A DNA stretch of 64,000 nt from Escherichia coli (GCF_003790525.1 NZ_CP033635.1), one strand, 5' to 3'; counted from the stretch's first letter, positions 41,784 to 55,156 are shown. Numbers and translations: made by a program. The notes: generated from the sequence alone by a model not told the origin.

Positions 41784-43448
41784 TTAAAACGTTTCCCAGT
41801 TCTCCCCGCTATCTGCCACGGCCATTTTACGCGGCGCAGCTGGCGTCACGGTTTTTACCACAGCCGATGTTTCACGCTGATGTTGCTGCTGTTGCTGAAT
41901 CCGGAACACTGCCACAGCTTCGGTCAGGCGACTGGCCTGCTCTTCCAGCGCGGCGGCGGCAGCGGCAGATTCTTCCACCAGCGCAGCGTTCTGTTGAGTT
42001 ACCCGGTCCATCTCAGCAACCGCTAATCCAACCTGATCGATACCACGGCTCTGCTCATCAGAAGCAGAAGCTATTTCGCCCATAATGTCCGTCACGCGGG
42101 TCACAGCGCTGACAATCTCTGCCATGGTTTCCCCGGCGCTTTCGACCAGCGTAGAGCCAACATCCACTTTGCCCACCGAGTCTTCAATCAGGCTTTTAAT
42201 TTCGCGAGCCGCCTGAGCGCTACGCTGGGCCAGATTACGCACTTCTCCCGCAACCACCGCAAAACCGCGCCCTTGCTCACCCGCGCGCGCTGCTTCAACC
42301 GCCGCGTTCAAAGCGAGAATATTGGTCTGGAAGGCAATGCCGTCAATTACGCTGATAATATCGGCGATTTTCTGCGAACTGGTGGAGATATCGCGCATGG
42401 TCTGCACCACGTTATCCACCACTTTGCCGCCGCGTTGCGCCGTTTCAGAAGCACTTAACGCCAGGTGGCTGGCCTGGCGCGCATTTTCGGCGTTCTGCTT
42501 CACCGTTGCGGTCAGTTGCTCCATGCTGGCTGCCGTCTCTTCCAGCGAAGCGGCCTGTTGCTCGGTGCGCGAAGAGAGATCGTTATTGCCGGTAGCGATT
42601 TCGCTGGCACCGCTATAGATGGCATTGGCCCCGTTGCGCACATCACCGACGGTACGCATCAGCTCTCCCTGCATATGGCGCAAACTCTCAGCCAGTTGCC
42701 CCATCTCATTAGAGCCATCCACCTCAATCGGTTTCACCAGATCGCCGCCTGCAATATGACGAATGCTGTCAATCAGGCGATTCATTGGCGCTACCAACGA
42801 GGCTTTAATACCGAACCAGACGGCGAAGATGACCGCCAGTACGACGATCATCACGCCCACCAGAATCCACATCGCCTGGCTGTAGGAGGCATTATTATCG
42901 CTGACGGCGATATCATAGAGCCGATCGTTTTGCTCCATGTAAGCCACATACTGCTTCTCGAAACCGTCCTGATATCCCTGGGTTGGCTGATCAAAGAACT
43001 CGTTGATTTTGCCTGCACCTAACAGTTGGATCAGCTCCGCCAGCGCATTGTGATAAATATCGTAATTACGTTTGATCTCTGCCGCTGCGGCGGTGCTCTG
43101 ACGCGGGTCACGCGGCAACGCTTCGTAATCCGCCCAGTTTTTTTCCGCCTGTTTCAGCGAAATACTGGCACTCTGCATCAGCTCAGCAACGGTTGAACCG
43201 CTACCAATATTATTCTGATCCATCATGTAGCGGATACCCGCGCGGTTGAGGGTGTTACGCGTCTGCAACAACGCGACCCAGCTGCCATTCAGCGTGGATT
43301 GCTGCTGGCGAATGGTTTGTAAAACAGTGAAATTTTCTTTGTCATTCTTTAAGGCATTAAAGAACAGACCGCCTGATGTCAGTTGTAAAAGGCCAAAAAC
43401 GGCCAAAACCAGCAGTAAGCTGGTCACGATCTTGATACGTTTTAACAT
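41784..43448 (-). CDS. tsr: Methyl-accepting chemotaxis protein I (serine chemoreceptor) Tsr
   Basis: ORF track 41784..43463; conserved start [23 protein letters not shown]; C-terminal NWETF pentapeptide. Confidence 0.92.
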
Positions 43449-43587
43449 GGTTTCTCTTTCCACTAGACAGATACACTGGTTGTCGGCCTGGTGGTGGAAA
43501 ACTTTATGCTGTGGAAAAGCGTCGGCACTGCTTTTGTTGCAGCAAACTTGCGTTTTTTGTGAGGGTCACACTCTATAGCGGCAGTTT

Positions 43588-44493
43588 ATGGTACAAAGTA
43601 TCAATCTTCTTCGAACCAGTGATACTCCTATGGCTTATAGCATCGATATCATCTCCTGCATTACCGAACGGTTTATGGCGTTAACAGCCACTGAAAAGCG
43701 TATCGCACAATTTATTCTTGATGACGTCTCTGCCGCAGTAGAGTTGCCAATTGCTGAGCTGGCACGGTTAACGCAAACCAGTCAGGCGTCGGTGACGCGT
43801 TTTGCCCGTGCACTGGGGTGCAAAGATGTCCGCGAGTTGAAAGTCAAACTGGCGCAGTCACTGGCTGTCGGGCAGCGGTTTATTCTCGATGTACCGGATC
43901 TTGACGGTGTTCAGGGGATCTACGAAGCGATTATTAGCGTGCTGGAGACGCATCGTCGTTCGCTGGATATGAATGCCATCAGCCAGGCTGTAAGCTGGTT
44001 AAGTCAGGCGCGGCAAATTCTTGCGTTAGGAACTGGCGGCGGTTCCACTATCTGTTCACAGGAGATTCAGTACCGTTTATTCCGTCTGGGGCTACCGGTG
44101 GTCAGTCAGAATGATGCCCTGATGATGAGAATGATGTGCTCGGCAGTCATGCCGCAGGATGTGGTGATTGTGCTTTCGCTGGGCGGTTATACACCGGAAA
44201 TCATCGAAAGTGCGGCAATCGCCCGTCAGTATGGCGCGCGTGTTATTGCCATTACGCCAGCACAAACACCGCTGGCGGAACAGGTGGATCTGGTATTGCC
44301 GTTACTGGTTCAGGAAAGTGATTACATCTTTAAGCCCACCCCTTCCCGCTACGCGATGTTAGCCATGGTCGATGTACTGGCAACAGAACTGGCAATGGCA
44401 AATAAAGCGCAGGCGAAAGATCGCCTGCGGCGGATAAAACTCGTGTTAGACAGCCACCGTGGGGGCGCTAACCGCCAGCCACTTGGCGATTAG
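43588..44493 (+). CDS. RpiR/MurR-family transcriptional regulator (N-terminal HTH, C-terminal SIS domain); start may be the internal Met at 43630
   Basis: HTH segment ELPIAELARLTQTSQASVTRFARALG and SIS-like ILALGTGGGS; divergent from tsr. Confidence 0.8.
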   Translation: MVQSINLLRTSDTPMAYSIDIISCITERFMALTATEKRIAQFILDDVSAAVELPIAELARLTQTSQASVTRFARALGCKDVRELKVKLAQSLAVGQRFILDVPDLDGVQGIYEAIISVLETHRRSLDMNAISQAVSWLSQARQILALGTGGGSTICSQEIQYRLFRLGLPVVSQNDALMMRMMCSAVMPQDVVIVLSLGGYTPEIIESAAIARQYGARVIAITPAQTPLAEQVDLVLPLLVQESDYIFKPTPSRYAMLAMVDVLATELAMANKAQAKDRLRRIKLVLDSHRGGANRQPLGD

Positions 44494-44502
44494 CATTGTC
44501 GG

Positions 44503-45972
44503 TTATGCTTCTTCAGGTTTGGTGATCACGACACTCTGGTTTTCACGCTCATTGGTGATAATAGCCAAAGCTTCTTCCCGGCTGACCTGACTTGCTGGCG
44601 TTACCAACGTCACCAGTACGCCAGCGACCAGGCTGCCCAGCACTGACGGAATACACGGGTTACCCCAGTAAGCCAGCCAGTCGGCATTCATCAGCACCAC
44701 AATTGACATCACCATACCACTCACTAACGCCGCCAGCGCGCCCTGCCAGTTAAAGCGTAGCCAGAAGCGACCGAGAATCGAGCAGATAAACAACCCGGAC
44801 ATCAGCATCGAAATCATTTTGGTAATGTAGCTGATGATGTCGTTAGAGGTCAGAGCAAAGACCAGCGCCAGGCCAATAACAAAGGTCAACATCCAGCGTG
44901 AGTAAGTGATTGCCTTATCCTCCGGCGGCATTCTGCCGGTAATCATGGTGTAGACGTCGCGCATCATAATCGCCACCGCCGCGATGGCATCGGAGCTGGC
45001 AGAAGACATGGTGGCTGAAAGCCCGGCAATCAGCACCACCAGCCCAAGAATGGCAGGTAAGAAACTGGTCGCGAACAAGAAGGCGTAGTTGCTGTTTTCC
45101 AGATTTGGGTTCATGGTGAACGCCGCCATGCCGATAATGGCAGGCAAAATCGAGAAGAACAGATATAACACCCCAGTAATAACAAACGAACGGCGTACAG
45201 AGGGAACATCTTTACCCGAGTAAATACGCTGGCGATAAGACGGTGTTGCCAGCACACCTACGCCAATAACCAGTGCCAGCGAAAGCGCAGGCAGCACGCC
45301 CATTTTATCAATCGCAAACAGGCTCATCGCTTTTGGGTCCATCGCCTGCTCAATCGCACTCCAGCCGCCAACGTGAACAACGGCAAGAATAGCCATTAAT
45401 ATAAAGCCAAAGAACAGAATTAGGGCCTGAATAGTATCTGTCCACACTACCGCCGAATAACCGCCGATAATAACGTAAATCGCAAAAGCTAAGGCAATAA
45501 TTAATTTTGCCACCGTAAGATCAATACCTGTTGCCCAGGCAAGATACATACTTCCACCTAATATATGCGCCCCCAGCCAGCCAATAGAGGCAATAAATAT
45601 CATCAGGCCGACAATATTTTTAATTAAATGGCTGCCGCCAGTATAATAAGATATTTCTTCACTCATGGTCATAAATCGTAATTTACGTACCGGTGCAAAC
45701 AGCCACGCCACCAGTAATATACCTACGGCCCCACCGACGCCATAAAGCATTCCGGCCCAGCCATTGCTGTAGCCAAAGCCCACTGCGCCCATACTGGAAC
45801 CCGTGCCAACCATCGTGGCAACGGTTGACCCCAGCGTCAGAAACAGCGGCAGCGAACGCCCGCCCAGCAGAAAATCTTCTCCGCTTTTCTGATTACGAGA
45901 AACAAACCAACCAAGCCAAATCATGGCGATGGCATAAATAATAAAGCCGACTAAAAAGATATGACTGTTCAT
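44503..45972 (-). CDS. Sodium:solute symporter family (SSF) transporter
   Basis: 489-aa polytopic membrane protein with SSF N-terminal signature FLLGGRSLPLFLTLGSTVATMVGTGSSMGAVGFGY. Confidence 0.8.
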   Translation of the reverse strand: MNSHIFLVGFIIYAIAMIWLGWFVSRNQKSGEDFLLGGRSLPLFLTLGSTVATMVGTGSSMGAVGFGYSNGWAGMLYGVGGAVGILLVAWLFAPVRKLRFMTMSEEISYYTGGSHLIKNIVGLMIFIASIGWLGAHILGGSMYLAWATGIDLTVAKLIIALAFAIYVIIGGYSAVVWTDTIQALILFFGFILMAILAVVHVGGWSAIEQAMDPKAMSLFAIDKMGVLPALSLALVIGVGVLATPSYRQRIYSGKDVPSVRRSFVITGVLYLFFSILPAIIGMAAFTMNPNLENSNYAFLFATSFLPAILGLVVLIAGLSATMSSASSDAIAAVAIMMRDVYTMITGRMPPEDKAITYSRWMLTFVIGLALVFALTSNDIISYITKMISMLMSGLFICSILGRFWLRFNWQGALAALVSGMVMSIVVLMNADWLAYWGNPCIPSVLGSLVAGVLVTLVTPASQVSREEALAIITNERENQSVVITKPEEA

Positions 45973-46074
45973 AATTCACATCCTGCCAGTAGAGAGAAAT
46001 TAATGTAAGAGTTCCCGGAGTGCTGAATGTATTCAGCACTCAATTGCGGTCTGTTTTTTTAATTCTTAAATTTA

Positions 46075-46470
46075 TTAGCGGGTCGCGTTATAACAGGTCA
46101 CATCGACTTCGACTTTACAATCGACAACCAGATCAGCCACACAACAAATACGTGCAGGTGGATTCTCGCCAAAAAATTCTCTGAATACTTTATTAAATGA
46201 CTGGAAATAGCGGGCGTCGGTCAGGATCACTTTCACGTGAACCACATCCACCAGGCTATAACCGGCTTCAGTCATGATGTCGACACAGTTTTGAATCGCC
46301 AGTCGTGACTGTTCAACGATTCCGCCTTCTACCACTTCACCGTTTTTCATGGGTGTTTGCCCGGAGACGTACAGCCAGCCGCCCGCCTCAACCGCCCTGG
46401 CAAAAGGCAAATGCTGCCCGCCAGTGCCTGTTCCACCTTCCGTACCGTAACGTTTAATGCTCATATTCAC
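46075..46470 (-). CDS. RidA/YjgF-family reactive-intermediate (enamine/imine) deaminase
   Basis: 131-aa ORF with family motifs LYVSGQTP, ARY..FN.V...FF and conserved Arg in ENPPARICCV. Confidence 0.8.
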   Translation of the reverse strand: MNMSIKRYGTEGGTGTGGQHLPFARAVEAGGWLYVSGQTPMKNGEVVEGGIVEQSRLAIQNCVDIMTEAGYSLVDVVHVKVILTDARYFQSFNKVFREFFGENPPARICCVADLVVDCKVEVDVTCYNATR

Positions 46471-46473
46471 TCC

Positions 46474-47925
46474 TTAATGTGAGGTCTGCCGGCGCAGGAA
46501 GCGTCCCGCACGGCCTGTAATATGTTTATCGGGACCATAGCTCATAACGCCGTTCACCATCACCGCCTCAATGCCATCTGCCGGGCGTTTGGGATCAGAA
46601 AAGCTGGCAACATCACGAATGGTTTGTGGATCGAACAACACCAGGTCCGCAAAATAGCCAACTTTCACCAGCCCACGCTGGGGCAGGCGAAAACGGCTGG
46701 CAGAAAGCCCGGTCATTTTGTGGATAGCCGTGGTCAGTGGGAATAAGCCTTCATCACGGCAATAGTGGCCCAGCACGCGAGGGAAGGCGCCCCATAAACG
46801 TGGATGCGGCATGGGATCATTGGGCAGGCCGTCAGAGCCAATCATACTGACCGGATAACTCAACACTCGGCGGACGTCGCGCTCGTCCATGTTGTAATAG
46901 ATAGCCCCGGCAGGCATTAGCAGCTTCGCGGCCTCCAGCATACTCATCTGCCAGTCGATGGCGATTTGCGCCAGTGTTTTCCCGGCCTGCTGCGGATGTG
47001 TTTGTGACCAGGTGATCACAATATCGAATTCGTCGGTGACTTGTTTGAGATCCAGCGTTGAAGAGCTGGCTGAGTAAGGGTAGACATCGCAGCCAATTTC
47101 CTGGTGTTGACGCATTTGGTCAAAAAAGGCCAACGTTTCTTTTGTCCGCCCCCAGTTTTTCGCCCCGGCGCATTTATGGTGGGAAACCACGACAGGCACT
47201 TTGCCATGACGCCCAATACGAAACGCCTCATCCAGGGCATCGAGAATCGGTTCAAATTCAGAACGCAGATGGGTGGTATAAACGCCCTTCTCACCGGCTA
47301 ATTCTTCCGCCAGCGCCATGACTTCTTCGGTAGTCGCCTGAAATGCCGTTGCATAGGCCAGCCCGGAACTTAACCCCAGCGCCCCCTGACTCAACGCCAG
47401 ACGTAAGTCGGCACGCATAGCGGCAATTTCATCCACCGTCGCCGGGCGAAACAGGTCGTCCATATGGTTATTACGCAGCGCCGTATGACCAATCAGCGTG
47501 CCAACGTTCAGTGACGGCCTGGCTGCTTCCACTGCCTGGGCATAGCTTTCAACGGTAGGATAAATAAAGTGCTCTGCTTCCCCCAACAGATTCATCGGGT
47601 CAGGAACTTCACCTTTCATTTTCGCCGACGCCGCACTAATCCCGCAGTTACCGACAATCACCGTAGTGATCCCCTGGCTGATCTTTGGCAGATATTCCGG
47701 GATGCGAATAACGTTGATATCGTCATGGGTATGAACGTCGATAAACCCTGGTGCCAGCACCCGCCCTTCCCCGTCAATGACCTGCTGCGCCGTAACGTTA
47801 AGCGCAGGGGCAATATCGACAATCCGATCACCTGTTATTGCCACGTCACCGCGAAATTCAGGGCCGCCGCTACCGTCGATAACGGTCACATTTTTGATTA
47901 ACCAGTCAACCTGCATGTTCGTCAC
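46474..47925 (-). CDS. N-acyl-D-amino-acid deacylase (D-aminoacylase), amidohydrolase superfamily
   Basis: 483-aa ORF with N-terminal IKNVTVIDGSG...GFIDVHTHDD metal-binding motif typical of D-aminoacylases. Confidence 0.8.
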   Translation of the reverse strand: MTNMQVDWLIKNVTVIDGSGGPEFRGDVAITGDRIVDIAPALNVTAQQVIDGEGRVLAPGFIDVHTHDDINVIRIPEYLPKISQGITTVIVGNCGISAASAKMKGEVPDPMNLLGEAEHFIYPTVESYAQAVEAARPSLNVGTLIGHTALRNNHMDDLFRPATVDEIAAMRADLRLALSQGALGLSSGLAYATAFQATTEEVMALAEELAGEKGVYTTHLRSEFEPILDALDEAFRIGRHGKVPVVVSHHKCAGAKNWGRTKETLAFFDQMRQHQEIGCDVYPYSASSSTLDLKQVTDEFDIVITWSQTHPQQAGKTLAQIAIDWQMSMLEAAKLLMPAGAIYYNMDERDVRRVLSYPVSMIGSDGLPNDPMPHPRLWGAFPRVLGHYCRDEGLFPLTTAIHKMTGLSASRFRLPQRGLVKVGYFADLVLFDPQTIRDVASFSDPKRPADGIEAVMVNGVMSYGPDKHITGRAGRFLRRQTSH

Positions 47926-48116
47926 TCCATTTCTGCAATGGTGACAAGTTAACCATTTACAAGGACGAAAAACAGTGGAAAACTACGCAAAACCCAGATG
48001 ATTTTATGATACTTTTATTCATAAATAATAAGATAAATAAACTAAATATTTATATTTCATTTAGTTACAAATGATACTCACATCCGATACGGTGAAAAAC
48101 TTAAAAGGTAAATGTT

Positions 48117-49337
48117 ATGAAATACCACTCAGAACCTCTGGTTCCCCATAAATCTGCCCTGATGCAAATGCCCGCAAATCTCCTTGCCGAAGATGTCTGT
48201 TTACCTGCCGCGATCATTAAAAAGCAGGCCCTGGAGAACAACATTACGTGGATGCAACGCTACGCTGACGCGCGCGGCGTTTCACTGGCACCGCACGGTA
48301 AAACCACCATGACGCCGTGGATTTTTCAGGCGCAGCAGGCGGCTGGTGCCTGGGCAATAGGTGTCGGTAGCGCATGGCAGGCTGGTGCGGCAATGGCGAG
48401 CGGTATTCAGCGAGTGCTGATGGTTAACCAGCTGGTCGGCAAGGCGAATATGCAGTTGATTGCCCAGTTGCAACGACATTACCCGACGGTCGATTTTATC
48501 AGCTGTATCGACAGCATTGAGAACGCCCGCGCTTTGTCTGCCTTTTTTGCCAGTCAGCAACAGACACTGAACGTGATGATTGAGTTGGGTGTCCCCGGCG
48601 GGCGCTGTGGTTGCCGCTCAAGGGATGCCGCACTGACACTGGCTAAACAGGCAGCCCAATTACCGGGGTTACGCCTGCGGGGGCTTGAGTTATATGAAGG
48701 CGTTTTACACGGTGACGATCCACAACCGCAGGTAGAAGCTCTGCTGCGGGATGCCGCACAACTGGCCTGTGATATGGCAAGTCTGGTTGATGGCGAGTTT
48801 ATTCTCACCGGAGCAGGCACGGTCTGGTATGACGTGGTGTGCAATATCTGGCTGGCGGCAGAAAAGCCTGATAACTGCCGCATTGTTATTCGCCCTGGCT
48901 GCTACATCACTCACGACACCGGGATCTACGACGCGGCACAACAACAGTTGCTTGCCCGTGATCCTGTGGCTTGCGATCTGGCAGGCGATCTCACATCTGC
49001 ACTGGAACTGGTCGCCATGGTGCAATCGGTGCCGGAAGCTGATCGTGCGGTGGTTAATTTTGGTAAGCGTGATTGCGCCTTCGACGCCGGACTGCCGCAA
49101 CCAGTCGCCCACTATCGCAACGGCAAATCACTGGCATTTGATCCACAGGCGATTCGCAGTACAGGCATTATGGATCAGCACTGCATGTTGCAGTTGGGTG
49201 CCGACAGCGACGTGCAAGTGGGGGATATTCTGGTGTTTGGCACATCGCATCCGTGCCTGACCTTCGACAAATGGAAAACGTTGTTATTGACTGATGACGA
49301 CTACAACGTACTGGCAGAATTAGACACTCTCTTCTAA
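48117..49337 (+). CDS. DSD1-family PLP enzyme (alanine racemase N-terminal fold; D-serine dehydratase / D-threonine aldolase-like)
   Basis: 406-aa ORF with probable PLP-lysine motif LAPHGKTT; RBS AAGG upstream of ATG; divergent from the aminoacylase gene. Confidence 0.72.
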   Translation: MKYHSEPLVPHKSALMQMPANLLAEDVCLPAAIIKKQALENNITWMQRYADARGVSLAPHGKTTMTPWIFQAQQAAGAWAIGVGSAWQAGAAMASGIQRVLMVNQLVGKANMQLIAQLQRHYPTVDFISCIDSIENARALSAFFASQQQTLNVMIELGVPGGRCGCRSRDAALTLAKQAAQLPGLRLRGLELYEGVLHGDDPQPQVEALLRDAAQLACDMASLVDGEFILTGAGTVWYDVVCNIWLAAEKPDNCRIVIRPGCYITHDTGIYDAAQQQLLARDPVACDLAGDLTSALELVAMVQSVPEADRAVVNFGKRDCAFDAGLPQPVAHYRNGKSLAFDPQAIRSTGIMDQHCMLQLGADSDVQVGDILVFGTSHPCLTFDKWKTLLLTDDDYNVLAELDTLF

Positions 49338-49341
49338 GAAC

Positions 49342-49377
49342 GCCCCTTCGGTTAATTATCGAAGGGGCATTTTTATT
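49342..49377 (+). terminator. Rho-independent terminator after the DSD1-family gene
   Basis: GCCCCTTCG-loop-CGAAGGGGC hairpin followed by ATTTTTATT. Confidence 0.6.
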
Positions 49378-49395
49378 GTGATCTCAATCACATAT
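49374..49395. promoter_or_regulatory. CRP binding site in btsT promoter
   Basis: TATTGTGATCTCAATCACATAT with perfect TGTGA-N6-TCACA core. Confidence 0.6.
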
Positions 49396-49604: not shown

Positions 49605-51755
49605 ATGGATACTAAAAAGATATTCAAGCACATACCCTGGGTGATTCTCGGAATCATCGGTGCATTCTGCCTCGCGGTAGTTGCATTACGTCGGGGGGAG
49701 CACGTCAGTGCCCTGTGGATCGTGGTCGCCTCTGTGTCGGTGTATCTGGTGGCTTATCGCTACTACAGTCTGTACATCGCCCAGAAGGTGATGAAACTCG
49801 ACCCCACGCGCGCGACGCCTGCGGTTATTAACAACGACGGTCTGAACTATGTTCCGACCAACCGTTACGTGTTGTTTGGTCACCACTTCGCCGCTATCGC
49901 CGGTGCTGGTCCGCTGGTTGGTCCGGTTCTCGCCGCGCAGATGGGCTACCTGCCTGGCACGCTGTGGCTGCTGGCGGGGGTAGTGCTGGCCGGTGCGGTA
50001 CAGGACTTTATGGTGCTGTTTATCTCCTCTCGCCGTAACGGCGCATCTCTCGGTGAGATGATCAAAGAAGAGATGGGACCAGTACCGGGGACTATCGCGC
50101 TGTTTGGCTGTTTCTTAATCATGATCATCATCCTTGCCGTCCTGGCGCTGATTGTGGTTAAAGCCCTGGCCGAAAGTCCGTGGGGTGTCTTCACCGTTTG
50201 CTCAACCGTACCGATTGCGCTGTTTATGGGTATCTACATGCGCTTTATTCGTCCGGGGCGTGTGGGTGAAGTCTCTGTCATTGGTATCGTGCTGCTGGTT
50301 GCCTCTATCTACTTCGGTGGCGTGATTGCTCACGATCCGTACTGGGGTCCGGCACTGACCTTTAAAGACACCACCATTACCTTCGCGCTGATTGGCTATG
50401 CGTTTGTTTCCGCACTGCTGCCAGTGTGGCTGATCCTCGCACCGCGCGACTATCTGGCAACCTTCCTGAAAATCGGCGTTATCGTCGGCCTGGCGCTGGG
50501 TATCGTGGTGCTGAACCCGGAACTGAAAATGCCTGCGATGACCCAGTACATTGACGGTACTGGCCCGCTGTGGAAAGGCGCTCTGTTCCCGTTCCTGTTC
50601 ATCACCATCGCCTGTGGTGCGGTATCTGGCTTCCACGCGCTGATCTCTTCCGGTACGACGCCGAAACTGCTGGCTAACGAAACCGACGCGCGTTTCATTG
50701 GCTACGGCGCAATGCTGATGGAGTCCTTCGTGGCGATTATGGCGCTGGTTGCTGCGTCCATCATCGAACCGGGTCTTTACTTCGCGATGAACACCCCGCC
50801 TGCTGGCCTTGGCATCACCATGCCTAACCTGCATGAAATGGGTGGCGAGAACGCGCCGATCATCATGGCGCAGCTGAAAGACGTTACCGCACACGCGGCA
50901 GCGACCGTCAGCTCCTGGGGCTTCGTGATTTCGCCAGAGCAGATCCTGCAAACAGCGAAAGATATTGGTGAGCCTTCTGTCCTGAACCGTGCAGGTGGTG
51001 CGCCGACGCTGGCGGTAGGTATCGCTCACGTGTTCCACAAAGTGCTGCCGATGGCTGACATGGGCTTCTGGTATCACTTCGGTATTCTGTTCGAAGCCCT
51101 GTTCATCCTGACCGCGCTGGATGCGGGTACCCGTTCTGGCCGCTTTATGCTGCAAGACCTGCTGGGTAACTTCATCCCGTTCCTGAAAAAAACCGACTCT
51201 CTGGTTGCCGGTATCATCGGTACTGCGGGCTGTGTGGGTCTGTGGGGGTACCTGCTGTATCAGGGCGTGGTCGATCCGCTGGGCGGCGTTAAGAGCCTGT
51301 GGCCGCTGTTCGGTATCTCCAACCAGATGCTGGCAGCCGTAGCGCTGGTACTGGGCACCGTTGTGCTGATTAAGATGAAGCGCACCCAATACATCTGGGT
51401 AACTGTTGTTCCGGCTGTATGGCTGCTTATCTGCACCACCTGGGCGCTGGGCCTGAAACTGTTCAGCACCAACCCGCAGATGGAAGGCTTCTTCTACATG
51501 GCAAGCCAGTACAAAGAGAAGATTGCTAACGGTACTGACCTGACGGCACAGCAGATTGCCAACATGAACCACATCGTTGTGAACAACTACACCAACGCGG
51601 GCCTGAGTATTCTGTTCCTGATTGTGGTGTACAGCATCATCTTCTACGGTTTCAAAACCTGGCTGAAGGTGCGTAACAGCGACAAACGTACTGACAAAGA
51701 AACTCCGTACGTTCCAATCCCGGAAGGCGGCGTGAAGATCTCTTCGCACCACTAA
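49605..51755 (+). CDS. btsT: Pyruvate/H+ symporter BtsT (YjiY), CstA family
   Basis: ORF track 49590..51755; conserved start MDTKKIFKHIPWVILGIIGAFCLAVVAL. Confidence 0.95.
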   Translation: MDTKKIFKHIPWVILGIIGAFCLAVVALRRGEHVSALWIVVASVSVYLVAYRYYSLYIAQKVMKLDPTRATPAVINNDGLNYVPTNRYVLFGHHFAAIAGAGPLVGPVLAAQMGYLPGTLWLLAGVVLAGAVQDFMVLFISSRRNGASLGEMIKEEMGPVPGTIALFGCFLIMIIILAVLALIVVKALAESPWGVFTVCSTVPIALFMGIYMRFIRPGRVGEVSVIGIVLLVASIYFGGVIAHDPYWGPALTFKDTTITFALIGYAFVSALLPVWLILAPRDYLATFLKIGVIVGLALGIVVLNPELKMPAMTQYIDGTGPLWKGALFPFLFITIACGAVSGFHALISSGTTPKLLANETDARFIGYGAMLMESFVAIMALVAASIIEPGLYFAMNTPPAGLGITMPNLHEMGGENAPIIMAQLKDVTAHAAATVSSWGFVISPEQILQTAKDIGEPSVLNRAGGAPTLAVGIAHVFHKVLPMADMGFWYHFGILFEALFILTALDAGTRSGRFMLQDLLGNFIPFLKKTDSLVAGIIGTAGCVGLWGYLLYQGVVDPLGGVKSLWPLFGISNQMLAAVALVLGTVVLIKMKRTQYIWVTVVPAVWLLICTTWALGLKLFSTNPQMEGFFYMASQYKEKIANGTDLTAQQIANMNHIVVNNYTNAGLSILFLIVVYSIIFYGFKTWLKVRNSDKRTDKETPYVPIPEGGVKISSHH

Positions 51756-52975: not shown

Positions 52976-53305
52976 TACCCTTAACCTACTAATACGAAGC
53001 GGACGAGGATAAAACCCTATCATTTTCCGTTCGCTTCACTATTTTATTTCGTTCCAACACCCATTAAAATTAAAAATATAATTCTGCCATAATTTCCTGA
53101 ACACAGATGTAATTACATTGCCACCACTCATACTTTTAAAAATAATTTATATGATAGACGTCCTATTGAGGCGTAATAGATGTATTAATTTCCAAATACG
53201 CAAACATTCTGGTACAGTCCAAAAAAGAAAAATCATCAACCAAAACAATCAGCAAATAAATTAACAACGATTGAATCATAATCAACACGAATACAAGAGA
53301 TTAAC

Positions 53306-55156
53306 ATGGCAACAATAATCCCAACAATCAGTAGCTGCAACGATAAAATTACTGCCGGAGAGAAAAGGCTGGCAAGAATTCTGGAAAGAGGACTAGGCGA
53401 AGAGTGCTGCTGTTGGTATGACATTCCCACGGGTGATAAGCATCTTCACCCAGATTTTATGATACTTTCGCCAGAAAAAGGCATTATTTTTCTCGAGGTA
53501 AAAGATTGGTTTATTACAAAAATAAAAAAAGCCAACAAGTCTAATGTGTTGTATGAGACACAAAATGGTATTCAATCTTTAAAGAATCCGATAGAACAAG
53601 TTAGGCGATATGCTTTCGAAGCTGTAAACCAGTTAAAAAAAGACCCCCTATTGTGCCAACAGGATGATCGTTACAATGGCAATCTTCTTTTCCCCTATGG
53701 ATATGGCGTCTACTTTAGTAATATTACACGAGAAGCATTAAATAATAAATTTACTCAAGAAGAGCTGCTCGGGATCTTCCCATCAGATCTCATCATCTGC
53801 AAAGACGAAATAAATGAATTCATGTCAAAAGAGGATGTTTCATCCAAAATACATTCGTTGATTAAATATGACTTCAAATGTCATGCTACACAAGAACAGT
53901 TGAACAGGATTAGATGGCACTTATACCCCGATGTCAGAATAGAAAGGGAAAAGAGAAGTAAAAACCGTGATGAATTTAGTGTCGATGCACCAACCATCAT
54001 TTCTATCCTGGATACTCAACAGGAACAACTTGCCAGAAGTATGAGAGATGGCCACCGGATCATTCATGGTGTTGCAGGTTCAGGGAAGACATTGATCCTC
54101 TATCATCGCTGTCAGGAATTAGCGAAAAAAAATGACAGCGAAAAGCCAATTCTTGTCATTTGCTACAATATTACTTTAGCCAAAAAACTTCGGTCGATGT
54201 TCATCAATCATCCCTTTGCAGAGAAAATAAAGGTTAAAAATTTTCATGCTTGGTGTTTCCAACAAATTAAAGAAAACAAGATCACTATTCCAGAAGGGGA
54301 TAATATTTTTGAAAATATGGAGCTAGCGTTGACTGATGGTTTCAAGACAGGAAAAATAAAACCAGAACAATACAGCGCTGTATTAATTGATGAAGGACAT
54401 GATTTTAAGCCAGAATGGTTAAAAATCCTGGCAAAAATGACTGACTCTCAGGACGAGAATTTGCTATTCCTTTATGATGATGCTCAGTCAATTTACCAAA
54501 AAAAGAAAGCATTAGACTTTACACTGTCCAGCGTAGATATTAAAGCGACAGGACGCACAACCATTCTTAATATAAATTATAGAAACACACAGCAAATCCT
54601 ACACTTTGCCAGTTGCATTGCATTTAATTATCTTAATAGCCATATCGATAGTTCTTTAACCTATCATAAACCTGCTGCGGGAGGAATGAATGGCGATTAT
54701 CCCAACCTTGAACATTTCGACACACAGGACGAAGAAATAGCACGAGCAGTCGAATGGATTACAGAGCAAAATGAACAAGGGATTCCGTGGTCTGAAATTG
54801 CTATACTAAGTCCATCAACTCACACCCTTTCTAACTCTCTAAGCTCTGTACTTGAATCGAAAAACATCCCCTTTAATCTTATTGTAAGCTCTGCAGATAA
54901 AAAGTCCTGGACGCCAGAACAAGAGCGTATTTCTGTTATGCCATTACCCAGCAGTAAAGGACTTGAGTTTCACTCAGTTGTCATTATTGATGCAGCGAGA
55001 ACACGGGATAATAGCGATGATTTGAGTGAGGATATAAAGAGACTCTATGTAGGTTTTACCCGAGCACGTTGCAATCTCTTGGTAACCTTGCACGGTGAAG
55101 GTGCGTTAAATGAGCATCTACTAAAAACCTATGAGCAAAGCCCACAATATATGTAA
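53306..55156 (+). CDS. NERD (PD-(D/E)xK-like nuclease) domain fused to SF1 UvrD-like helicase/ATPase, 616 aa; candidate single-gene defence protein
   Basis: N-terminal HPDFMILSPEKGIIFLEVKDW (D..E.K nuclease-like core); Walker A GVAGSGKT (aa 255-262), Walker B LIDEGHDF, motif VI-like VGFTRAR; gene is low-GC and sits where K-12 has mrr-hsdRMS. Confidence 0.8.
   Translation: MATIIPTISSCNDKITAGEKRLARILERGLGEECCCWYDIPTGDKHLHPDFMILSPEKGIIFLEVKDWFITKIKKANKSNVLYETQNGIQSLKNPIEQVRRYAFEAVNQLKKDPLLCQQDDRYNGNLLFPYGYGVYFSNITREALNNKFTQEELLGIFPSDLIICKDEINEFMSKEDVSSKIHSLIKYDFKCHATQEQLNRIRWHLYPDVRIEREKRSKNRDEFSVDAPTIISILDTQQEQLARSMRDGHRIIHGVAGSGKTLILYHRCQELAKKNDSEKPILVICYNITLAKKLRSMFINHPFAEKIKVKNFHAWCFQQIKENKITIPEGDNIFENMELALTDGFKTGKIKPEQYSAVLIDEGHDFKPEWLKILAKMTDSQDENLLFLYDDAQSIYQKKKALDFTLSSVDIKATGRTTILNINYRNTQQILHFASCIAFNYLNSHIDSSLTYHKPAAGGMNGDYPNLEHFDTQDEEIARAVEWITEQNEQGIPWSEIAILSPSTHTLSNSLSSVLESKNIPFNLIVSSADKKSWTPEQERISVMPLPSSKGLEFHSVVIIDAARTRDNSDDLSEDIKRLYVGFTRARCNLLVTLHGEGALNEHLLKTYEQSPQYM

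Follow-up and report, generated by a model that had tools for sequence, protein, structure and literature searches.

A putative reduced ong-family gene cluster between tsr and btsT of Escherichia coli SMS-3-5

Between the genes tsr and btsT, the chromosome of Escherichia coli SMS-3-5 carries five genes with generic names in RefSeq (MurR/RpiR regulator, sodium:solute symporter, RidA family protein, N-acyl-D-amino-acid deacylase family protein and amino acid deaminase). Which pathway do they encode, and for which substrate? We addressed this question in a window of 64,000 nucleotides, the whole stretch of DNA analysed, which is identical to the RefSeq record of SMS-3-5. The original prediction, a note made from the sequence alone, had read the five genes as a module for the uptake and catabolism of N-acyl-D-amino acids. 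The comparisons described here indicate that they very probably form a reduced member of the ong family of clusters, a statement that concerns membership alone.

Five intact open reading frames (ORFs) lie between tsr and btsT at the coordinates given by the original prediction, and they contain all the motifs it had cited, i.e., GFIDVHTHDD, PHGKT and the RidA PPAR arginine. The RefSeq starts of three genes (43630, 46464 and 47916) differ slightly from the ORF starts. The genes and their products, including an enzyme dependent on pyridoxal 5'-phosphate (PLP), are as follows.

43630 to 44493, plus strand: ongR-like MurR/RpiR regulator (HTH_6 and SIS domains), a predicted repressor by homology to OngR; an upstream extension of the ORF reaches 43588
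44503 to 45972, minus strand: ongIT-like sodium:solute symporter of the SSS superfamily, a predicted acetamido-aldonate importer by homology to OngIT
46075 to 46464, minus strand: ongD-like Rid-family protein, by homology to OngD; a longer ORF reaches 46470
46474 to 47916, minus strand: ongB-like subtype-V amidohydrolase, a predicted 2-acetamido-2-deoxy-aldonate deacetylase by homology to PpOngB; a longer ORF reaches 47925
48117 to 49337, plus strand: ongC-like fold-type III PLP enzyme (Ala_racemase_N and D-ser_dehydrat domains), by homology to OngC

Relationship to the ong cluster

The ong cluster of Pseudoalteromonas prydzensis ACAM 620 serves oxidative chitin utilisation and comprises OngR, OngIT, OngD, OngB and OngC together with KdgK, the GH20 hexosaminidase OngA and a TonB-dependent receptor (Jiang et al. 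2022, PMC9537276). In that pathway, OngB deacetylates 2-acetamido-2-deoxy-D-gluconate (GlcNAc1A) to glucosaminate, which OngC deaminates to 2-keto-3-deoxygluconate (KDG) without prior phosphorylation. OngR acts as a repressor, and growth on GlcNAc1A is lost in ongIT, ongB, ongC, ongD and kdgK mutants; OngD is thus needed in vivo, and no role is assigned to it in that study (PMC9537276).

For the comparison we recovered an ong cluster from Pseudoalteromonas sp. ZZD1, a strain with an OngB 92% identical to the characterised PpOngB. All five E. coli products match ZZD1 ong components over their full length and one-to-one, with identities of 44-84%: 44% for the regulator and OngR, 58% over 473 aa for the transporter and OngIT, 84% for the Rid-family protein and OngD (with the PPAR arginine kept), and 45% over 386 aa for the PLP enzyme and OngC. 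The deacylase aligns with PpOngB (PDB 9kb1) over 474 aa with no gap at 53.6% identity, and among PDB entries PpOngB (E=4e-167) ranks ahead of the D-aminoacylase AfDam (4e-136). Every sequence in the OngC alignment, the PLP enzyme included, has the PHGKTTM lysine motif and the TSHPCLTFDKW His/Cys motif, and the two domains typical of DSD1-like enzymes (PF01168 and PF14031) are precomputed hits on orthologues of the PLP enzyme. The Rid-family protein is far better conserved between E. coli and Pseudoalteromonas (84%; locus L085, 11463-11846) than the accompanying enzymes (45-58%).

Five of the eight components of the Pseudoalteromonas cluster (OngR, OngIT, OngD, OngB and OngC) have one-to-one homologues in the E. 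coli island. The adjacency of ongB and ongD, the transporter gene downstream of them and the family of the regulator are the same in both. On the other hand, ongC is divergent from ongB in E. coli while it heads a C-R-B-D operon in Pseudoalteromonas, the regulator gene is convergent and placed at the far end of the E. coli island only, and position 348 of the deacetylase is Asn in E. coli and Gly in PpOngB. Neither a TonB-dependent receptor nor the GH20 hexosaminidase OngA is encoded in the island or the 64-kb window, where tblastn with OngA gave no hit, and homologues of kdgK, eda, dgoK and dgoA were likewise not found in the window. The ong kin are catabolic clusters for C1-oxidised N-acetylhexosamines (2-acetamido-2-deoxy-hexonates). 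The original prediction knew of no described operon with this composition; this does not hold for bacteria, since the ong cluster was published in 2022, while for E. coli it seemingly does in the literature searched.

None of the five proteins has more than a sub-threshold family hit in NCBIfam, which accounts for their generic RefSeq names. The top match of the regulator, HexR, lies under its cut-off, and the best match of the PLP enzyme, BhcC, far under it; the best PDB match of the latter is 3gwq. With the ong relationship, these five accessory genes, so far known by generic names, gain a specific and testable predicted function.

Based on these homologies, we propose a theoretical scheme for the pathway. 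The SSS transporter would import the sugar acid, and the OngB-type zinc amidohydrolase would strip the acetyl group to give a 2-amino-2-deoxy-hexonate, formally a polyhydroxy D-alpha-amino acid. The OngC-type PLP enzyme, a predicted 2-amino-2-deoxy-aldonate ammonia-lyase giving a 2-keto-3-deoxy-hexonate, would then eliminate the C3 hydroxyl and the amine, and the Rid protein would hydrolyse the resulting enamine/imine to the 2-keto-3-deoxy-hexonate and ammonia. Phosphorylation of this product and its cleavage into pyruvate and glyceraldehyde-3-phosphate would fall to chromosomal enzymes outside the island; E. coli K-12 encodes both possible downstream routes, dgoK/dgoA and kdgK/eda. The RpiR-type protein would hold the divergent promoters repressed until the substrate arrives. 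The steps up to the 2-keto-3-deoxy-hexonate, as well as the repression, are predicted from one-to-one homology to characterised proteins, and for the Rid protein we infer the role itself. The order of reactions put forward in the original prediction (import, deacylation, PLP-dependent beta-elimination and RidA acting on an enamine/imine) is the same as in the characterised homologous pathway (PMC9537276).

Substrate class and configuration

GlcNAc1A deacetylases have been distinguished from D-aminoacylases by Ser292 instead of Thr, Gln298 instead of Leu or Arg, small residues at positions 193, 256 and 348, and the polyol-binding residues Glu226 and Ser290 (PMC12017989). The four metal/catalytic residues (C, H, H and D) and all seven anchoring residues of the E. 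coli deacylase are identical to those of PpOngB. Six of its seven pocket residues are identical as well (A, E, A, S, S and Q at PpOngB positions 193, 226, 256, 290, 292 and 298), the sole change being Gly348 to Asn. The protein therefore combines the Cys/His/His metal site, the catalytic Asp, Ser292 and Gln298 that mark the OngB type. AfDam (EC 3.5.1.81), in contrast, has a hydrophobic pocket of Phe191, Met254, Thr290, Leu298 and Met346; the residues aligned with these in E. coli are Ala, Ala, Ser, Gln and Asn. A neighbour-joining tree of 85 deacetylases sets them cleanly apart from AfDam, with a long branch between it and all OngB-like sequences, but does not resolve in which order the Asn and Gly clades branched.

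The relatives of the island differ in the kinase and aldolase that accompany the shared genes. We scanned species-representative genomes, which gave 80 loci, and retrieved the Klebsiella and Raoultella loci separately via the PLP enzyme. The order with ongC divergent from ongB-ongD, the transporter gene next and the regulator gene at the end is kept in 18 enterobacterial loci, in Vibrio and in Burkholderiaceae; 12 enterobacterial scan loci, the Klebsiella and Raoultella loci and two further E. coli strains share it (the transporter gene being absent in three). The seven-gene cluster of Klebsiella pneumoniae and Raoultella, which includes the gene for the acylase KleDacyl (PDB 9G5M, PMC12149444), holds orthologous genes in the same order as E. 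coli (84% identity for OngB, 83% for OngC), with the same Asn348 and the same blocks in the control region. It differs in its genomic site, beside the hpa genes, and in carrying dgoK-like and dgoA-like genes between transporter and regulator, where E. coli has 9 bp.

A DgoK-family kinase (PF05035) lies between transporter and regulator in 15 Asn348-type loci (Klebsiella, Raoultella, Leclercia, Cedecea, Rahnella, Buttiauxella, Enterobacter sp., RIT691 and five Paraburkholderia). The same operons also encode a DgoA-type aldolase. Compared with the E. coli proteins, the in-cluster kinases are 50-53% identical to DgoK in the enterobacterial loci and 31-35% in Paraburkholderia, and the in-cluster aldolases 66-70% and 45-46% identical to DgoA, respectively. 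The Leclercia aldolase, from the one locus scanned, passes the NCBIfam cut-off for 2-dehydro-3-deoxy-6-phosphogalactonate aldolase, while the DgoK-like ORF of the relatives has no NCBIfam match whatsoever. Each Gly/Cys348-type cluster with an in-cluster kinase has a PfkB-type KdgK instead (two Vibrio loci, P. entomophila, Andreprevotia and Thalassotalea), and the two Vibrio loci also bear an Eda-like aldolase. The ACAM 620 cluster encodes a PfkB-type KdgK as well (PMC9537276). DgoA Val154 and Eda Thr161 fall in one alignment column, which holds Val in all six aligned aldolases of the Asn type (Klebsiella, Raoultella, Leclercia and three Paraburkholderia) and Thr in one Vibrio aldolase. We take this position to be tied to the stereochemistry at C4. 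The five-gene form without kinase and aldolase occurs in E. coli, Franconibacter (Enterobacter) pulveris and Shimwellia.

Residue 348 follows the same division. It is Asn in all 24 deacetylases of Enterobacterales, Burkholderiaceae and Achromobacter, two reference proteins included, and Gly or Cys in Pseudoalteromonas, Vibrio, Pseudomonas and Andreprevotia; 121 marine PpOngB homologues have Gly in 110 cases, Cys in 10 and Asn in one. Besides, the marine clusters adjoin GH20, GH18, KdgM or TonB-receptor genes, whereas GH20, GH18 and TonB-receptor genes were not seen alongside the Asn-type clusters, and the OngA hexosaminidase and the TonB-dependent receptor are absent from the Klebsiella and Raoultella loci. 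A pathway for oxidised amino sugars that has been described as a marine chitin trait would have a chitin-independent core in gut and soil Enterobacterales.

The C4 and C5 centres of the substrate are preserved in the beta-elimination. An operon that holds a 2-keto-3-deoxygalactonate kinase and a 2-keto-3-deoxy-6-phosphogalactonate aldolase would therefore act on a galacto-configured 2-amino-2-deoxy-hexonate, with N-acetyl-D-galactosaminate as the compound imported. Given ong membership, we lean slightly to such a galacto substrate over GlcNAc1A; this call comes from the gene neighbourhoods of relatives and is much less certain than the membership itself. The full statement, a reduced ong-family pathway that converts N-acetyl-D-galactosaminate to 2-keto-3-deoxygalactonate for DgoK and DgoA, comes close to an even chance without quite reaching it. 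A tentative extension, to which we give somewhat less than an even chance, is that the clusters of this form, enterobacterial and Burkholderiales, encode a pathway of their own, as yet undescribed, that feeds N-acetyl-D-galactosaminate (or D-galactosaminate) via 2-keto-3-deoxygalactonate into the De Ley-Doudoroff branch, E. coli having a minimal version that borrows dgoK/dgoA of the host. The marks of this form are Asn348, the DgoK/DgoA-type enzymes in the operon and the lack of chitin machinery. Its substrate could come from oxidised N-acetylgalactosamine, mucin-derived or environmental, rather than from chitin. If the galacto assignment is true, an oxidised sugar of mucin would be broken down here by a new route, and the island would be a candidate niche determinant for its carriers, about 4% of E. 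coli.

Several observations weigh against the galacto assignment. GlcNAc1A is the substrate of every characterised OngB, and growth on GlcNAc1A, induction, deacetylation and deamination are known solely for the Pseudoalteromonas proteins (PMC9537276). Jiang et al. also include Klebsiella and Serratia among the bearers of ong clusters that co-occur with genes for lytic polysaccharide monooxygenases (LPMOs) (PMC9537276), and Glu226, which binds the C4 hydroxyl of GlcNAc1A (PMC12017989), is conserved in the E. coli protein. The association of Asn348 with the kinase stands on few independent lineages, because the neighbour-joining tree leaves a shared origin of Asn348 undecided. The literature searched contained no report of N-acetylgalactosaminate as a natural nutrient, and nothing relevant on the catabolism of galactosaminate or N-acetylgalactosaminate, or on glucosaminate in connection with a D-aminoacylase. 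The island itself lacks kinase and aldolase genes, hence the argument from DgoK and DgoA is one by proxy. Moreover, KDG as the product would induce its own KdgR regulon, whereas the dgo operon responds to galactonate.

In the closest competitor, the E. coli island has the same substrate as the Pseudoalteromonas cluster: free GlcNAc1A, released by the LPMO-driven chitin oxidation of other organisms or formed by oxidation of N-acetylglucosamine, would be scavenged and converted to KDG for the core enzymes KdgK and Eda of the Entner-Doudoroff branch. We regard this as a substantial possibility, albeit well short of an even one. It draws on direct homology to the sole characterised system, on the identity of 17 of the 18 functional PpOngB residues, Glu226 included, and on the presence of kdgK and eda in K-12. 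A loss of dgoK/dgoA-like genes would also be tolerated more easily if the product were KDG, the inducer of its own regulon. However, the operons of the closest relatives hold DgoK/DgoA-type and not KdgK/Eda enzymes, Asn348 is specific to the clade, and hexosaminidase, chitinase and outer-membrane transporter genes are found neither in nor near the enterobacterial clusters.

The reading of the original prediction, that ordinary N-acyl-D-amino acids are deacylated to D-amino acids which the PLP enzyme then dehydrates, appears unlikely. The RefSeq gene names agree with it, and the Klebsiella acylase KleDacyl (PDB 9g5m), 84% identical to the E. coli deacylase, cleaves N-acetyl-D-Met, -Phe, -Trp and -aminobutyrate with specificity for the D form (PMC12149444). 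Besides, OngC also deaminates D-Ser and D-Thr (PMC9537276). Nevertheless, KleDacyl is a weak enzyme, with a Km of 19-32 mM or higher and a kcat/Km of 1.5-2.8 min-1 mM-1 (PMC12149444), i.e., about 0.03-0.05 s-1 mM-1 compared with 1.6 for PpOngB on GlcNAc1A (PMC12149444, PMC12017989). PpOngB showed no activity on ten N-acetyl-D-amino acids, N-acetyl-D-serine included; its substrate panel did not contain the galacto analogue of GlcNAc1A. The pocket of the E. coli deacylase is polar and agrees with OngB, not with AfDam or BbDam. The side-chain pocket of KleDacyl is polar as well; its Gln292 adopts two conformations, and a glycerol molecule contacts Glu220, Lys248 and Asn342 (PMC12149444), the last being the equivalent of residue 348. 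The glycerol looks like a mimic of a polyol chain. A beta-eliminating PLP enzyme, moreover, cannot use D-Met, D-Phe or D-Trp, and a sugar-type regulator is at odds with amino-acid catabolism, as are the genes with which the relatives encode a kinase and an aldolase for 2-keto-3-deoxy sugar acids.

We treat the D-acylase activity as a side activity, because KleDacyl is weak, the pocket is polar and PpOngB is inactive on N-acetyl-D-amino acids. An enzyme published as a D-acylase is thereby tied to its probable real role, the E. coli orthologue being predicted as a sugar-acid deacetylase. With respect to the substrate, the original prediction holds in a formal sense, since GlcNAc1A is an N-acetyl-D-amino acid, and fails in the class of compound, a sugar acid; the OngB pocket, the inactivity of PpOngB and the poor kinetics of KleDacyl speak against ordinary N-acyl-D-amino acids that would yield D-Ser or D-Thr. 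Its reservation that an RpiR/SIS regulator may point to a sugar-like substrate was right in spirit, as the sugar-acid class fits a regulator of the sugar type. The interest of the island lies in the corrected annotation, the link to the Klebsiella 'D-acylase' and a galactosaminate branch that can be tested. Two structural papers on these close homologues appeared in 2025; one is silent on sugar acids, GlcNAc1A and OngB (PMC12149444), the other on Klebsiella (PMC12017989).

An OngB-signature deacetylase is encoded in all 54 Pseudomonas species loci (L014-L078), directly preceded by an RpiR-family gene in 43 of them; the PLP enzyme, RidA and SSS transporter were undetected near the deacetylase in 53 of the 54. 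The exception is P. entomophila (L041), with ongD, ongC and kdgK upstream. At L014, the one locus annotated, the neighbours are unrelated, with a glyoxalase/bleomycin-resistance-like ORF and a chemoreceptor gene downstream. Another system for comparison is the dga pathway for D-glucosaminate in Salmonella, which uses import by the phosphotransferase system, the ammonia-lyase DgaE acting on the 6-phosphate and the aldolase DgaF. It resembles the island in leading from an amino-aldonic acid to the phosphate of a 2-keto-3-deoxy sugar acid, and differs in its unrelated proteins, in phosphorylation as the first step and in having no deacetylase. The database hit for D-glucosaminate degradation in E. 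coli is this unrelated dga pathway (MetaCyc PWY-7310).

Transcription units and control elements

The layout of the genes suggests a leftward and a rightward unit that share a control region, with the following elements.

47917 to 48116: divergent control region, from the phylogenetic footprint of 18 orthologous spacers
47946: conserved block AAGTTAACCATTTACAAG
47969: conserved block AAAACAGTGGAAAACTACGCAAAA
48007: conserved block TGATACTTTTATTCA
48072: conserved block TGATACT
46018 to 46041: perfect palindrome of 24 bp, GAGTGCTGAATGTATTCAGCACTC, in the spacer between the Rid-family and transporter genes
49342 to 49368, plus strand: intrinsic terminator after the PLP gene, directly ahead of the CRP-like palindrome of btsT

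The deacylase and RidA genes are adjacent, as the original prediction had it, with a gap of 9 bp from the annotated ATG or 3 bp from an upstream GTG in place of the 4 bp it had claimed. Its other two distances change only slightly: the gap of about 100 bp between the RidA and transporter genes is 102 bp, and the AT-rich divergent spacer of about 190 bp measures 191-200 bp with 28-29% G+C. The deacylase and RidA genes, probably with the transporter gene, would form one leftward transcription unit, and the PLP gene would be transcribed divergently from the low-G+C spacer. The regulator and transporter genes are convergent and 9 bp apart.

The blocks of the divergent spacer are kept in more than 10 enterobacterial genera and represent candidate promoters and a candidate operator of the regulator. 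Between 47946 and 48078 they are near invariant in Escherichia, Klebsiella, Raoultella, Leclercia, Franconibacter, Cedecea, Rahnella, Buttiauxella and Shimwellia, while the intervening AT-rich sequence varies. The 24-nt box AAAACAGTGGAAAACTACGCAAAA is the best operator candidate, and the regulator should repress the divergent promoters. TGATACT occurs twice in the divergent spacer and once just ahead of the regulator start (43620). A scan of the control region for consensus promoters performed no better than on shuffled sequences and was uninformative. For the 13-nt GTGGAAAAC-type motif the window shows no enrichment, 12% of shuffles doing as well; the argument for an operator therefore rests on conservation across genera and not on repetition. 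The palindrome GAGTGCTGAATGTATTCAGCACTC is not followed by a T-run and is for that reason unlike an intrinsic terminator; an operator and a hairpin in the mRNA are both possible.

The insertion site and the island within E. coli

The site was mapped by alignment with the K-12 spacer.

41784 to 43448, minus strand: tsr, left flank
about 43509 to 49376: segment present in SMS-3-5 and absent from K-12, from K-12 spacer alignments and motif positions
49377 to 49392: CRP-like palindrome in the btsT promoter, common to the window and K-12
49605 to 51755, plus strand: btsT, right flank

In agreement with the original prediction, tsr and btsT are neighbours in K-12 (MG1655), separated by a spacer of 377 bp, and its estimate of about 6 kb between the two genes compares with an insert of 5.9 kb measured against K-12. 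The insert replaces about 110 bp of the K-12 spacer. On the left, K-12 homology ends about 60 bp upstream of the tsr start, and on the right it restarts at the CRP-like palindrome of the btsT promoter. In Leclercia the regulator gene likewise adjoins tsr, and the junction is common to Leclercia and the E. coli island. We considered a mobile genomic island with signatures of horizontal transfer and rejected it: no integrase, insertion sequence, tRNA target, flanking direct repeats or deviant composition was found at the insert, whose G+C content is 0.515 compared with 0.513 for the window. Scans of the island for tRNAs and with Rfam returned nothing.

The comparison across genomes that the original prediction had proposed as a check mapped the presence and absence of the island in E. 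coli and found the five genes co-conserved in other enterobacteria. The island occurs in 194 of 5,426 complete E. coli genomes (about 4%), always on the chromosome, and in 193 of the 194 carriers the match spans at least 80% of the segment, with 95-100% identity. Among the carrier matches listed are several isolates from poultry, livestock and humans. A K-12-like empty junction is found in 2,755 of the 5,426 genomes; the spacer between tsr and btsT is a variable hot spot, and the remaining genomes, about 45%, must have different sequence there. In each of the three alleles compared (SMS-3-5 and two others) the five genes are all intact. Synonymous and non-synonymous differences between SMS-3-5 and the two other alleles number 81/18 and 59/6, with dN/dS of 0.07 and 0.03, and from this synonymous excess it follows that the module is under purifying selection where present.

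That the island is a decaying, functionless remnant which has lost its kinase, aldolase and upstream chitin machinery is very improbable: its absence from 96% of E. coli genomes, the frameshifted fragments of two genes that strain HH45 retains at the site and the missing Klebsiella kinase and aldolase genes would fit such a decay, but the intact ORFs with dN/dS of 0.03-0.07, the near-uniform carriers, the same five-gene form in Franconibacter (Enterobacter) pulveris and Shimwellia, and the two downstream routes encoded elsewhere in E. coli all argue against it. We conclude that the island is a real, selected accessory module and very probably a reduced variant of the pathway published in 2022.

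The surroundings of the island vary among strains. In HH45, where the deacylase and PLP genes survive between tsr and btsT merely as frameshifted fragments, TRAP-transporter genes lie across tsr from the site. In strain LR-27 the island is followed on its right by genes for an Ldh-family oxidoreductase, an amino-acid permease and an aldehyde dehydrogenase, an arrangement that Raoultella shares. Further along the SMS-3-5 window, past yjiA, a stretch of low G+C (0.35-0.37) extends from about 53000 to 54000 and beyond. The mrr/hsd immigration-control region of K-12 is swapped in SMS-3-5 for a 3'-5' exonuclease gene, a type I restriction endonuclease fragment, symE and GmrSD/DUF262 genes, one of which is truncated.

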